DNA from: Alistipes sp.
GTDB taxonomy: Bacteria; Bacteroidota; Bacteroidia; Bacteroidales; Rikenellaceae
Assembly (NCBI RefSeq): GCF_022782405.1
Contig: NZ_JALFNK010000011.1
DNA length: 64,000 nucleotides
Direction: 5' to 3' (one strand)
The position numbers were made by a program, and so were the translations under genes. Each line of letters opens with the position of its first letter. Positions within the stretch are counted from its first letter, which is position 1. Shown in pieces: positions 2,391-17,772 of the stretch. The notes beneath the pieces were generated by a model. The model saw only the letters and a list, made by a program, of their open reading frames with translations, made no database searches and was not told where the DNA came from.

Positions 2391-2852
2391 TTATTCGATG
2401 ACGATTAAGTTATCACCTTCCATAACCGTGGCGCCCTGCTGTACGAGCACCTGCTTGACAACACCGGCACGATCCGCGTCGATATTGTTCTCCATCTTCA
2501 TGGCCTCGAGGATCACGAGCGTCTGGCCGCGCGACACGGTATCGCCCACATTGACCTTGACCGACAGCACCGTACCGGGCAGCGGGCACTTCACGGCATA
2601 TCCCGAGCTGGGAGCTACCGCGCTCAAGCGGGGCGACGGAGCAGCCGTCGCGGGAGTGATCATTGCGCTGTTGGCGCCTTTTGCTGCGGGTGCGACCTGC
2701 GGCTTGGTCGAAGCCGCAGCCTTGGCCCCGCCGATCTCCACCTCGTACGATACGCCATTGACGACCACATGGGCCAGCGTCGAAGCCTCATTGACGTCGT
2801 CGATCTGCACGTCGTAATTATGTCCGTTGATTTTCAAAGAGTAATCTTTCAT
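2391..2852 (-). CDS. mmdC: Biotin carboxyl carrier subunit
   Basis: EAMKM biotinylation motif after an Ala/Pro-rich linker; operon context. Confidence 0.92.
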
Positions 2853-2862
2853 TGCTTTTTAA

Positions 2863-3204
2863 CTATTTTCTGTCAGGCATCTGGGTTAAACCGTGAATTT
2901 TGGAATTCCAGGGCGAATAGGCACGCTTGATGCTCAAAATGGTCAGCACCTCCGACTCGCGGTCGTGCAGCTCGCTGCGGAAGATCTTGAGCGCCGTGGC
3001 GATGGCGGCGATCTCTTCGTCATGCAGCTGCGCAGGAGCGGAAGCCGGGTTCATGGCGTTGCGGCGCGAGAAGGCGGCTCCGAAGCCCTTCATCACCCAC
3101 ACCAGCAGCAACAGCACGAGGAACACCAGGCAGATGCTGATGAGCGCCACCCACAGCATCTCCGACCAGCCCCAGTCCATAACCGTTAATATTTTCATAG
3201 TCAT
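2863..3204 (-). CDS. mmdD: OadG/MmdD-family small membrane subunit
   Basis: Single N-terminal TM helix, IAAIATAL motif, C-terminal SPWNSK; lies between mmdA and mmdC. Confidence 0.8.
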   Translation of the reverse strand: MTMKILTVMDWGWSEMLWVALISICLVFLVLLLLVWVMKGFGAAFSRRNAMNPASAPAQLHDEEIAAIATALKIFRSELHDRESEVLTILSIKRAYSPWNSKIHGLTQMPDRK

Positions 3205-3213
3205 GCGATTTTA

Positions 3214-4779
3214 TTACAGGGGGATGTTGGAATGCTTCTTCGGCGGGTTCTGCAGGCGTTTCGTTGCCAGCGACTGCAGGGCGCGGATGATGCGGAAGCG
3301 CGTGTTGCGCGGCTCGATCACATCGTCGATGTAACCGTAGCGGGCGGCATTGTAGGGGTTCGAGAACTTGTCGTTGTACTCCTTCTCCTTTGCTGCGATG
3401 AAGGCGGCCTTCTCTTCGGGCTTGTCGGCAAGCTCCTTGAGTTCCTTGCCGTAGAGCACCTCGACGGCACCGCTGGCACCCATCACGGCAATCTCGGCCG
3501 TAGGCCATGCATAGTTGATATCGCCGCGGATGTGCTTCGACGACATGACGATGTAGGCACCTCCGTAAGCCTTGCGGAGCGTAACGGTGATCTTCGGCAC
3601 CGTAGCCTCGCAGTAGGCGAAGAGCAGCTTCGCACCGTGCGTGATCACGCCGCCGTACTCCTGGGTCGTACCCGGCAGGAAGCCCGGAACGTCCACGAGC
3701 GTTACGATCGGGATGTTGAACGCGTCGCAGAAACGCACGAAGCGGGCAGCCTTGCGGCTGGCGTTGATATCGAGCACGCCGGCCATGAACTTGGGCTGGT
3801 TGGCGATGATGCCGACCGACTGTCCGTTGAAGCGGGCGAAGCAGGTGATGATGTTCTTGGCATAACCGGCAGCCGACTCCAGGTATTCGCCGTTATCGAC
3901 AATCGCACGGATCACCTCGGCCATGTCATAGGGCTTGTTGGCGCTGTCGGGAATGATCTCGTTGAGCGAATCCTCCAGACGGTCGATACGGTCCGTGCAG
4001 ATTGCCAGCGGAGCATCCTCCATGTTGTTCTGCGGCATGTAGGAGATAAGCTTCTTGATCAGCTCGATACCCTCCTCCTCGGTATCAACGGCAAACTGGG
4101 CCACACCCGACTTGGTGGTATGCATCACGGCACCGCCGAGCTGCTCCTGCGTTACGTCCTCGCCCGTTACGGTCTTCACGACCTTCGGGCCCGTGAGGAA
4201 CATGTTCGAGGTCTCCTTCTTCATGATGATGAAGTCGGTCAGCGCAGGCGAATAAACCGCACCGCCGGCGCAGGGGCCAAAGATGGCCGAGATCTGCGGG
4301 ATGACACCCGAAGCCATCACGTTGCGCTGGAAAATGTTGGCGTAACCAGCCAGGGCGTTCACGCCCTCCTGGATACGGGCGCCGCCCGAGTCGTTCATGC
4401 CGATGCAGGGAGCACCGTTGCGCATGGCCATGTCCATGACCTTGCAGATCTTGTCGGACATCGACAGCGACAGCGAACCGGCCGTTACGGTGAAGTCCTG
4501 TGCAAAGACATAGACCAGACGGCCGCCGATCGTTCCGTAACCCGTTACCACACCGTCGCCGAAGGCGTGGCTCTTGTCCATGCCGAAATCGTAGCAGCGG
4601 TGCGTTACGAACATGTCGAACTCCTCGAACGAGCCCTCGTCCAAAAGCATCTGGATACGTTCGCGCGCCGTGTACTTGCCCTTGGCATGCTGGGCGTCGA
4701 TACGCTTCTGGCCACCTCCGAGACGCGCCGTTTCGCGATTCTCGATGAGCTGGTTGATCTTATTCTGAATTTCGCTCAT
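3214..4779 (-). CDS. mmdA: Methylmalonyl-CoA decarboxylase alpha / acyl-CoA carboxyltransferase subunit
   Basis: [45 protein letters not shown]. Confidence 0.93.
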
Positions 4780-15936: not shown

Positions 15937-16014
15937 TGGTCGGGGTAACAGGATTCGAACCTGTGACCCCCTGCTCCCAAAGCAGGTGCGCTAACCGGAC
16001 TGCGCTACACCCCG
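15937..16014 (-). tRNA. tRNA-Pro (anticodon UGG), CCA encoded
   Basis: Reverse complement CGGGGTGTAGCGCAGTCCGGTTAGCGCACCTGCTTTGGGAGCAGGGGGTCACAGGTTCGAATCCTGTTACCCCGACCA folds as a cloverleaf. Confidence 0.96.
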
Positions 16015-16095: not shown

Positions 16096-16102
16096 CGATC
16101 TG

Positions 16103-16177
16103 TCGGGGAGACTGGATTCGAACCAGCGACCTCCAACTCCCGAAGCTGGCGCGCTAACCGGACTGCGCTACACCCCG
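16103..16177 (-). tRNA. tRNA-Pro (anticodon CGG), CCA not encoded
   Basis: Reverse complement CGGGGTGTAGCGCAGTCCGGTTAGCGCGCCAGCTTCGGGAGTTGGAGGTCGCTGGTTCGAATCCAGTCTCCCCGA; promoter TATCTTTG at 16214-16207. Confidence 0.96.
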
Positions 16178-16279
16178 AACAGGGCCCTTATCGTTTTAAG
16201 AGCGCACAAAGATAAGTCTAAAATCCGAAAGGACAAAATAAATTCACAAAAAAATACCGGTTGCAAGAAGATGCCGACC

Positions 16280-17353
16280 TCATAACCGGTGATAATGGCA
16301 GCCGAGCAACATGCCCCGATCGTCGCGCAGGTGCATGCCGCCACCCTGGCAATAACGGAACATACGACAGTCTCCGCACATTCCCCGGCGCATCCATTCC
16401 CGGTCGCGGAAGGGTTGGAAACGGGTCTGCCACACCTCCCAGAAACGGTCGCGGTAGATATTTCCCTGATTGAAGTTGGCACGGATCGACGTGCAGCCCG
16501 AAATAGCCCCGTCCACCCGGACGGAGGCCACCGAGATTCCGGCGGCACATTGATAAAAATGATCGCGGACCTCGGCCTCGTAACCACCGAGAAAACCTTC
16601 GCAGGCATAGCTGGCATCGATACGCCCTTCACGGCGCGTACGTCGGATGAAATCGAGCAACGTCCGGAATTCGGCATCCGAAAGACGGAGTTTCGGCTCC
16701 TCCTTGGCACGCCCGGCCGGAAAAATGGAGAAAAGCCGCCAATGACGGACCCCTTCGGCGATGAGCATATCGCGAAAAGCCTCCAACTGCGGGACAAGGG
16801 AGGCCGTAACGCAGGTTACGATATCGAAGGAGAGCGACGGCTCGCGCACGACCATCCGCACGGCTTCGAGCGCCTGTTCATAGCTGCGCGGATTGCCTCG
16901 CAACCAGTTGTGCTCGGAAGCGAATCCGTCGAGGCTTACGGACAAACTTCGCAAGCCGGCCGCAAGCAGGCTGCGCAGCCGGTCCGGAGTCAGCGCCAGT
17001 CCGTTGGTAACCATCCCCCACGGATAACCGCGGCGGGAAATTTCCATTCCGGCCCGTTCGAGATCCGGGCGTACCAATGCCTCGCCGCCCGAGATGACGA
17101 CGAGCACCTGTGCCGGATCGACATGGGGCGTTACCTCCTCATCGAGAACGCGCAGGAAATCTTCCAAAGGCATGTCCGCCACCCCGGGATCCGTACGGCA
17201 GTCGCTGCCGCAGTGACGGCACGAGAGATTGCAACGCAGCGTACACTCCCAAAAGAGCGTATCGAGACGATGTTCGCGCACCCGCTCCCGATACAGGTCT
17301 GAAAAAAGATCGAGGGCCCATTTCTTGCGGAGCCCCAAACGCCGGCCGCGCAT
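16280..17353 (-). CDS. Radical SAM/SPASM enzyme, resembling the Bacteroidota rSAM/lipoprotein system (TIGR04133-like)
   Basis: LFWECTLRCNLSCRHC (CxxxCxxC), ISGGEAL, GMVTNG, SVSLDG; SPASM-type CAAG...GC...CGDCRMFRYC; 3 nt downstream of a small lipoprotein gene. Confidence 0.9.
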   Translation of the reverse strand: MRGRRLGLRKKWALDLFSDLYRERVREHRLDTLFWECTLRCNLSCRHCGSDCRTDPGVADMPLEDFLRVLDEEVTPHVDPAQVLVVISGGEALVRPDLERAGMEISRRGYPWGMVTNGLALTPDRLRSLLAAGLRSLSVSLDGFASEHNWLRGNPRSYEQALEAVRMVVREPSLSFDIVTCVTASLVPQLEAFRDMLIAEGVRHWRLFSIFPAGRAKEEPKLRLSDAEFRTLLDFIRRTRREGRIDASYACEGFLGGYEAEVRDHFYQCAAGISVASVRVDGAISGCTSIRANFNQGNIYRDRFWEVWQTRFQPFRDREWMRRGMCGDCRMFRYCQGGGMHLRDDRGMLLGCHYHRL

Positions 17354-17356
17354 GGA

Positions 17357-17641
17357 TCAGCGCTCCGCTTGCGGCGTTTCACCGCCGGTTTCCGAAGATT
17401 CCGGGACCGTTGGACTCTGCGAGCGTTCGACCTGCTCCATGGGACGCTTGTCCAACGGCGTCTGAGCTGGCGGACGCACACCGTACATGACAATGATCTG
17501 CGGACGTTCGCTGCCCTCCACGGCCGTAGAATCCGCGCGTTCCGCCCTTTCGGAGTTGCCTTTCGCGGTGTTTTTTACCGTGGAACACGCTGTCGAGAAC
17601 CCCAACAGTGCCAAAATCGCCCATTTGAACCGTTTGCTCAT
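17357..17641 (-). CDS. Small lipoprotein, putative rSAM substrate (MYG motif)
   Basis: Basic N-terminus, hydrophobic core, lipobox Cys19 (LLGFSTAC); polar low-complexity body with IIVMYGVRP; own TATCTTTG at 17672-17665. Confidence 0.75.
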   Translation of the reverse strand: MSKRFKWAILALLGFSTACSTVKNTAKGNSERAERADSTAVEGSERPQIIVMYGVRPPAQTPLDKRPMEQVERSQSPTVPESSETGGETPQAER

Positions 17642-17772
17642 GAATCGCTGCTATTAGTAGTCTACAAAGATAGCATTTTTCATGCTAATCCAAAAAAAAG
17701 ATCAAATCATTTTGAAAGTCAATGTTTTTTATATTACTTTGTAGAACCTAATAACATTTTAATTCATTTTTT

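Follow-up and report, generated by a model that had tools for sequence, protein, structure and literature searches.

Spliceases are radical S-adenosylmethionine (SAM)/SPASM enzymes that excise a tyramine equivalent at X-Tyr-Gly sites. Their native splice sites include MYG and LYG (PcpA, RcsA, RasA), type I systems require a small Y protein whereas binary systems do not, and the spliceotides tested inhibit Ser and Cys proteases (PMC11414181, PMC10533398, PMC11626197). In AlphaFold models of PlpAXY, PcpAXY and RhaXA, an activating helix from the Y protein or the leader has been reported on the enzyme, with XYG in the active site. A 2022 survey screened all radical SAM-SPASM proteins for YG-rich neighbours (Scott et al., Chem 8:2659), and reported 939 systems as predicted and 27 as tested. 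A further radical SAM system, TIGR04133/TIGR04134, is already catalogued as uncharacterised. Here we describe a TIGR04133 locus in a 64,000-nucleotide (nt) stretch of an Alistipes sp. genome (contig NZ_JALFNK010000011.1 of assembly GCF_022782405.1), hereafter the window. It consists of a gene for a prolipoprotein of 94 amino acids (aa) and a gene for a TIGR04133 enzyme, and the lipoprotein carries a conserved Tyr-Gly site that very probably is what the enzyme modifies.

We determined which positions of the lipoprotein are conserved by aligning 24 short-form partners of TIGR04133 enzymes, which are 21-47% identical to the window lipoprotein (alignment A4). Only three columns were invariant, namely G14 in the lipobox, Y53 and G54, the latter two being the sole invariant positions of the mature part. 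L13, C19, M52, V55 and P58 were at least 90% conserved. An earlier interpretation of the window (the sequence-only reading) had proposed a splicease-type site here and had named beforehand the conservation of YG among orthologous partners as the test that could refute it; the proposal withstood this, with Y53 and G54 invariant and YG kept family-wide. In a logo of 127 YG sites from all partner types, the preceding position was Met in 46% and Glu in 20%, followed by C, V, L, A and I, while V, T, S and P were found at +2 and Pro occupied +3 in 63%. The consensus site is therefore (M/E)-Y-G-(V/T)-P, with a variable X in which M ranks above E, C, V and L. The same signal appeared in an unbiased k-mer test on the upstream open reading frame (ORF) of each locus (n=79), picked regardless of lipobox or motif, with expectations derived from composition. 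YG occurred in 73 of the 79 ORFs (20.1 expected) and MY in 47 (5.8 expected), and MYG was the commonest tripeptide, present in 44.

The lipoprotein and the enzyme also travel together. Of 41 related genomes, 22 encode a protein that exceeds the TIGR04133 cut-off, and at least 585 GTDB species representatives encode a relative of the window enzyme, the closest being those of an uncultured Alistipes (80% identity) and A. montrealensis (79%). We found the pair again at 30 loci in relatives, and among 80 species-level loci a lipobox protein nearly always adjoins the enzyme gene. A nearby lipoprotein with YG was found in 75 of these 80 loci, in one case at a greater distance upstream, a second radical SAM gene having been inserted in between. 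Three loci encode the same lipoprotein type with C-Y-A instead of C-Y-G, two are truncated at contig ends and one lacks a partner. Apparent exceptions to the pairing were resolved as Y-A variants or as loci in which a second radical SAM gene separates the enzyme gene from lipoproteins further upstream. When the A4 profile was searched against the 41 related genomes, all 13 strong homologues lay directly upstream of a TIGR04133 gene, and no short-form homologue was found in genomes without the enzyme; in its own genome, the window lipoprotein was recovered with an E-value of 1e-27. The pairing is strictly adjacent across Bacteroidales and is also found in a Treponema. Both the pairing and the motif are far beyond chance. 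Considering this, we suggest with considerable confidence that the lipoprotein is the substrate of the enzyme and that its Y-G site is modified.

The organization of the locus is consistent with such a relationship. Every feature listed by the sequence-only reading is present, including a two-gene operon with its own promoter and a 3-nt gap, the lipoprotein with Cys19 and an enzyme of the CxxxCxxC/SPASM type (Table 1). The lipoprotein gene comes first and the enzyme gene lies downstream, with the ORFs in one frame and joined as TGA-TCC-ATG. An in-frame arrangement of the TGA-TCC type was also seen in 14 of 40 other loci examined. No RRE, protease or transporter genes adjoin the pair in the window, as the sequence-only reading had stated. 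We consider it very likely that the two genes form one transcription unit encoding an enzyme and its protein substrate.

Table 1. Positions of the gene pair, its sequence features and its neighbours in the window.
Feature	Coordinates	Strand	Remarks
Prolipoprotein gene, 94 aa	17357..17641	minus	ORF; short, disordered form of TIGR04133 partner; no NCBIfam or Pfam family
Signal peptide and lipobox, residues 1-19	17585..17641	minus	MSKRFKWAILALLGFSTA followed by C; Cys19 at 17587-17585
Conserved hydrophobic island I49-P58 (IIVMYGVRPP)	17468..17497	minus	Predicted modification site M52-Y53-G54 at 17488-17480
Radical SAM/SPASM enzyme gene, 357 aa	16280..17353	minus	TIGR04133 family; cytoplasmic; without RRE/PqqD domain
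N-terminal helix, about residues 8-28 (LRKKWALDLFSDLYRERVREH)	17270..17332	minus	Ahead of radical SAM core; AlphaFold2 helix at fusion residues 104-123, pLDDT about 90
Radical SAM [4Fe-4S] motif C41-x3-C45-x2-C48 (CNLSCRHC, then GSDC52)	17210..17233	minus	Invariant in 23 and in 76 sequences
SPASM region	16298..16603	minus	Invariant C251, C269, C287, C326, C329, C335, C352
Bacteroidota-type promoter -7 box TATCTTTG (TAnnTTTG)	17665..17672	minus	Ends 23 nt 5' of lipoprotein ATG
Two tRNA-Pro genes (anticodons TGG, CGG)	15937-16014 and 16102-16177	minus	Directly 3' of enzyme gene

Bacterial lipoproteins are recognised by an N-terminal basic region, a hydrophobic helix and a lipobox of the form [LVI][ASTG][GA]C. 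The window protein (MSKRFKWAILALLGFSTACSTVKNTAKGNSERAERADSTAVEGSERPQIIVMYGVRPPAQTPLDKRPMEQVERSQSPTVPESSETGGETPQAER) has a basic N-terminus and a hydrophobic helix ahead of the lipobox LLGFSTA-C19, as expected of a bacterial lipoprotein processed by Lgt and LspA. L13, G14 and C19 are conserved among the 24 short-form orthologues, and AlphaFold2 predicts a helix at residues 3-18. This helix is the only structure predicted for the lipoprotein folded alone; after removal of the signal peptide the mature peptide would have roughly 75 residues, predicted to be disordered. The part after Cys19 is polar and of low complexity except for the island around M52-Y53-G54, a contrast that the sequence-only reading had already drawn and that is borne out. 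Cys19 is the sole cysteine of the protein.

The same reading had brought up the TIGR04133/TIGR04134 pair, which fits the enzyme and not the lipoprotein. The enzyme matches NCBIfam TIGR04133 (rSAM_w_lipo) with 597.2 bits (E-value 8.5e-180, cut-off 425), its residues 8-357 covering profile positions 1-349 of 350. The lipoprotein had no match to the 150-position TIGR04134 model (cut-off 39.8 bits) even at E-values up to 10, it had no family match in NCBIfam or Pfam, and the 'DVDGxxNG' motif of the TIGR04134 beta-domain is absent from it. A six-frame search of the whole 2.26-Mb Alistipes genome likewise gave nothing above the TIGR04134 cut-off.

In Pfam, the enzyme matches Radical_SAM (PF04055, 65 bits) and SPASM (PF13186, 29 bits). 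In its SPASM region, Gly339 takes the place of the fourth Cys of CX2CX5CX3C. Within the N-terminal helix H28 does not vary, and R9 and L14 hardly do. The solved folds nearest to the enzyme are those of SkfB, SuiB, BlsE, PqqE, DesII and ChlB, which are mostly peptide-modifying radical SAM enzymes, while no splicease structure was found in the PDB. The enzyme has no signal peptide.

We next compared the conserved island with known splice sites. In a tblastn search of plasmids with the window enzyme, its own family came out on top, followed by a radical SAM enzyme of Agathobacter rectalis (109 bits), the TIGR04103 enzyme of Nostoc sp. C057 (106 bits) and GDL-motif TIGR03913 enzymes (92-103 bits). 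All of these next-best enzymes have X-Y-G partners, and we therefore suggest that IIVMYGVRPP resembles real splice sites beyond the bare YG. The Nif11 precursor at the Nostoc TIGR04103 locus ends in GGRGSIALYGLPPELF (...SIALYGLPPELF; ALYGLPP) and is followed by a 71-aa Y-like ORF. Splice tags derived from PlpA, the substrate of the IPR026482 member PlpX, read xYGLPI and xYGVVFP. Comparison with these sites supports the splicease-type character claimed for the site.

The enzymes share features as well. Against 18,950 NCBIfam models, TIGR04133 was the next-best family after their own two for three of four splicease-clade enzymes (185, 175 and 129 bits); for the Nostoc enzyme it came fourth, with 152 bits compared with 154 for AhbD. 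TIGR04133 and the splicease clade have in common a G253-x4-Y258-E259-x3-R263 signature just before the first SPASM Cys, as well as T180, W205, I284 and S289. None of the ten other SPASM enzymes in the alignment has E259 or R263, whereas one or two of them have some of the remaining shared residues. In a tree of 29 sequences (IQ-TREE, with HxsB as an outgroup flagged as a long branch), we recovered TIGR04133, an X-Y-G clade (support 88/75) and the other SPASM enzymes (95/89) as groups. Uniting TIGR04133 with the X-Y-G clade costs 3.7 log-likelihood units (approximately unbiased test, p 0.31), and this arrangement is neither rejected nor established.

Several results weigh against a splicease. 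Membership of the enzyme in the splicease families did not hold up: TIGR04103 scores 108 bits (cut-off 725) and TIGR03913 110 bits (cut-off 592), both below membership, and the tree does not place the enzyme inside the clade. TIGR04053 (119 bits) and AhbD (117 bits) score slightly higher; the similarity to cofactor-type SPASM proteins, which had been named in advance as telling against the proposal, is in this respect on par with that to the splicease families. The window enzyme is 26% identical to the Nostoc TIGR04103 enzyme (117 bits), and so is about as far from it as MftC and PqqE (26-28%), while the identity of the Nostoc enzyme to TIGR03913 enzymes is 47-48% and to the Agathobacter enzyme 32%. 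The splicease clade keeps the fourth Cys of CX2CX5CX3C that TIGR04133 lacks. The tree is a three-way split, and with HxsB included TIGR04133 falls outside a grouping of the splicease clade with the other SPASM enzymes, HxsB joining TIGR04133. The splicease clade shares 12 signature sites with the other enzymes compared with nine shared between TIGR04133 and the splicease clade. Y-A stands in place of Y-G in some paralogous partners. Finally, a full-text literature search, which did not reach Scott et al. 2022, found no mention of TIGR04133 or TIGR04134; it also found no link of spliceases or ketoamides with lipoproteins or Bacteroides. The TIGR04133 family may already be included in that survey. 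Taken together, the TIGR04133 enzyme is not demonstrably a splicease by descent.

We looked for docking in a structural model of a natural 453-aa fusion, in which the TGA between the in-frame lipoprotein and enzyme is read as a residue; 14 other loci permit the same fusion. The alignment used for AlphaFold2 (A3) comprised 15 fusions and 61 enzyme-only rows. The enzyme was modelled confidently, with a mean predicted local distance difference test (pLDDT) score of 81.7, values above 90 over most of the domain and a predicted template modelling score of 0.81. A further but slight point against a splicease is that fusion residues 18-97 have pLDDT below 50, with about 35 at MYG, and that MYG is not placed in the active site, in a model that is a fusion rather than a multimer and has no positive control. 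The signal-peptide helix reached pLDDT 88 in the fusion and a similar 83 in the lipoprotein folded alone, so that its confidence is intrinsic and gives no evidence of docking.

These results leave room for a different radical chemistry at the same Y-G site of the same substrate, which is the strongest rival and which we regard as a serious possibility, if clearly short of an even chance. Such chemistries include a C-C or C-O crosslink between the Tyr ring and the residue at +2 (a triceptide-like three-residue cyclophane over Y-G-V/T), hydroxylation or desaturation at C-alpha or C-beta, epimerisation and cleavage of the Tyr side chain. TIGR04133 forms a deep family of its own that is not nested in the splicease clade and has a different SPASM Cys pattern, related SPASM enzymes perform many reactions on Tyr peptides, with MftC and PqqE about equally close to the Nostoc enzyme, and the fusion model, which has no positive control, gives no splicease-like docking. 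A crosslink to +2 could also explain the constrained positions after the Gly (V/T/S/P, then P). On the other hand, a variable X, an invariant Y-G, a strong preference for Met and a following x-P form the pattern of proven splice sites, and signature residues are common to TIGR04133 and the splicease clade. For the cyclophane in particular, an invariant middle Gly with a variable third residue is, to our knowledge, not typical of known three-residue motifs. Thioether chemistry of the sactipeptide or ranthipeptide type was rejected because the only Cys in the substrate is that of the lipobox.

Less probable by far is that the lipoprotein is not the substrate, being instead a co-expressed partner or an unrelated neighbour of an enzyme that acts on another protein or, like AhbD and NirJ, on a small molecule or cofactor. 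AhbD, NirJ2 and TIGR04053 match the window enzyme with scores comparable to those of the splicease families, the enzyme is cytoplasmic while the lipoprotein is exported, an RRE domain is absent and the fusion, modelled with no positive control, shows no docking. Against this stands the near-universal, strictly adjacent pairing across Bacteroidales and in a Treponema. The partners share only a signal peptide and the short Y-G motif, and a structural partner should conserve more. We found no heme d1 or alternative heme genes beside the enzyme gene and no SPASM paralogue anywhere in the genome to which the window belongs, and the nearest solved folds are mostly peptide maturases. We therefore consider this explanation improbable. 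That the small ORF, which is short, of low complexity and without a family match, arose by chance or miscalling and carries MYG by coincidence has a negligible probability and is effectively refuted by the conservation of an in-frame lipobox and MYG in the 24 species of A4, the genome-specific E-value, the position of all 13 strong homologues next to an enzyme gene and the promoter box in front.

Returning to the enzyme-substrate pair, we propose the following course of events. The TIGR04133 enzyme would use a 5'-deoxyadenosyl radical and auxiliary Fe-S clusters in the cytoplasm to modify the prolipoprotein at the only conserved site of its mature part, M52-Y53-G54(-V-x-x-P), before Sec export. 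Since the enzyme has no signal peptide and its chemistry is oxygen-sensitive, it should act on the cytoplasmic precursor, ahead of Sec, Lgt and LspA. Lgt and LspA would then lipidate Cys19 and remove the signal peptide, leaving a disordered lipid-anchored peptide of about 75 residues. The modification may be a splicease-type excision of a tyramine equivalent (C8H9NO, -135.07 Da) from Tyr53, which would turn Met52 into a ketoamide. We regard this as the leading chemistry, although its probability falls a little short of one half. The explanation as a whole, an enzyme-substrate pair with splicease-type excision followed by export and anchoring, is the best available and in our view evenly balanced between right and wrong. 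In place of the activating helix of Y proteins or leaders, the N-terminal helix of the enzyme (residues 8-28) could speculatively serve. The product could, by analogy, be a ketoamide that inhibits proteases or captures targets covalently in the envelope.

More tentatively, TIGR04133 might represent a separate branch of tyramine spliceases, spread across Bacteroidales and reaching a Treponema, with Sec-exported lipoproteins as substrates instead of peptides that are released. Activation would fall to the signal peptide or to the enzyme's N-terminal helix, and the product would be a lipid-anchored alpha-keto-beta-amino acid electrophile in the envelope of abundant gut commensals, in this Alistipes as a minimal disordered peptide of 75 residues that probably faces the periplasm.

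The partners of TIGR04133 enzymes fall into two types. The short, disordered type, to which the window lipoprotein belongs, has about 98 aa with about 30 residues between the Cys and Y-G, and the residues after the Cys are net basic in 31 of 42 cases. The long, TIGR04134-like type with the 'DVDGxxNG' domain has about 153 aa with only about nine residues between the Cys and Y-G, and is net acidic after the Cys in 15 of 19 cases. Short forms continue after the lipidated Cys as C-S-[ST]-V-[KR]-[NQ], which in the window lipoprotein reads STVKN after Cys19. Lauber et al. 2016 and Valguarnera et al. 2018 are said to have described an acidic stretch after the lipidated Cys as the surface-export signal of Bacteroidota. 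Because basic rather than acidic residues follow Cys19, the window peptide probably faces the periplasm rather than the outside. The charge difference between the partner types suggests that their final locations differ, with one at the periplasmic face and the other at the cell surface.

Other arrangements were found in paralogous loci of Alistipes. In some of these (for example L077:60-3574), the Y-G lipoproteins are separated from the TIGR04133 gene by two inserted genes, one for a second, 348-aa radical SAM/SPASM protein and one for a membrane protein of 169 aa. In the Alistipes loci L061, L063 and L066 the partner reads C-Y-A-(P/C). The genome of the window has a single simple locus only.

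We also asked whether YG sites occur in other lipoproteins of this genome. Among about 255 candidate lipoproteins with 79,699 mature residues there are 21 YGx(x)P sites. One candidate for a second substrate in trans is a 255-aa lipoprotein with PYGTP four residues after the lipobox Cys (AAGCYDAPYGTPDAG), encoded outside the window on the minus strand of contig C8 at 127526-128293, counted along that strand. The case for it is weak, as about one such instance is expected by chance among the roughly 255 lipoproteins.

Two observations concern the next-best enzymes of the tblastn search. In Agathobacter rectalis (NZ_CP143948.1; L116:2342-2449), an unannotated 35-aa ORF, MFNLEELSLEFVKISELKTSKNLFGPVMYGTGVRM, ending in LFGPVMYGTGVRM, lies upstream of the radical SAM gene at 2531-3685, and the locus also has an MFS transporter gene. 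The best families of this enzyme are TIGR04103 (235 bits), TIGR03913 (225 bits) and TIGR04133 (185 bits), and we regard the locus as a candidate spliceotide locus in a gut Firmicute. The second observation concerns the DUF1843/DUF1842 partners of TIGR03913 enzymes, in which P/M-Y-G(V/A/P) stands about ten residues before the GDL motif. Such proteins lie beside TIGR03913 enzymes on plasmid records of Azospirillum sp. B510, Aureibacter tunicatorum and a Burkholderia (L124:1808-2263, L117:1647-2360 and L118:324-1889). Because of the P/M-Tyr-Gly before GDL, and since TIGR03913 enzymes are 47-48% identical to the PlpX-family TIGR04103 enzyme, DUF1843/DUF1842 proteins look like splicease substrates. 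A structural study of 2024 treats them as proteins of unknown function and does not mention radical SAM enzymes or splicing (PMC10994174).

In the surroundings of the pair, a divergent cold-shock gene is the upstream neighbour of the lipoprotein gene. TAnnTTTG, the promoter box found in front of the latter, has 30 matches in the window compared with 10.65 expected, a number that none of 100 shuffles reached. For the tRNA-Pro pair there is a separate TATCTTTG box at 16207-16214, and a hairpin resembling a terminator lies at 16096-16070.

If splicing proves true, a reaction demonstrated to date only for peptide natural-product pathways expressed in heterologous hosts would be taking place routinely on envelope lipoproteins in hundreds of gut and rumen Bacteroidales species, given the at least 585 species-level genomes with a relative of the enzyme. 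In that case, ribosomal backbone splicing would rank among the common modifications of envelope proteins in the gut microbiota. Its products would be ketoamide electrophiles tethered to the membrane, which might help to control proteases on the cell surface or in the periplasm. Should the chemistry be otherwise, the enzyme would perform a novel radical SAM reaction at Tyr-Gly. The window version, which has two genes, one conserved site, a predicted mass shift and a disordered substrate of 75 residues, is about the simplest member for testing.

Among known systems, the locus is most directly comparable to the TIGR04133/TIGR04134 pair, two NCBIfam hypothetical equivalogs named by PGAP 'TIGR04133 family radical SAM/SPASM protein' and 'radical SAM-associated putative lipoprotein'. 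The window enzyme is a full-length member, and the order of lipoprotein then enzyme and the lipobox partner are as in Treponema saccharophilum. Unlike TIGR04134 partners, the window lipoprotein lacks the beta-rich 'DVDGxxNG' domain of about 100 aa, has its Y-G about 30 rather than nine residues from the Cys and is basic rather than acidic after the Cys.

Spliceotide systems, both type I (PlpX/PlpY/PlpA, PcpXYA; TIGR04103/IPR026482) and binary type II (RhaX, RcsX, RasX), likewise have a radical SAM/SPASM enzyme adjoining a ribosomal substrate, with an invariant Tyr-Gly, a variable and often Met preceding residue and a following x-Pro. They share the G-x-Y-E-x3-R signature with TIGR04133, each family is among the other's best-scoring curated families, and the binary systems are also without a Y protein. 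Unlike them, the window pair has no Nif11/NHLP-type leader, protease or exporter, and its substrate has a Sec/lipoprotein signal peptide and would stay anchored to the membrane.

The GDL-motif maturase (TIGR03913, 'rSAM trio') is similar in that its partners have Y-G and that Y-A is found in a number of paralogous ones, which is also the case at some Alistipes loci. Unlike TIGR04133, it lies inside the splicease clade proper, considering its 47-48% identity to TIGR04103, and its partners are cytoplasmic helical or beta-barrel proteins rather than lipoproteins. MftC and PqqE resemble the window enzyme in fold, SPASM architecture and a Tyr-containing peptide substrate, and are at a similar distance (MftC 74-76 bits by tblastn; PqqE 55 bits by hidden Markov model). 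They differ in that they need a PqqD-type chaperone, act at a C-terminal Val-Tyr and at Glu...Tyr, respectively, and make cofactors from larger operons.

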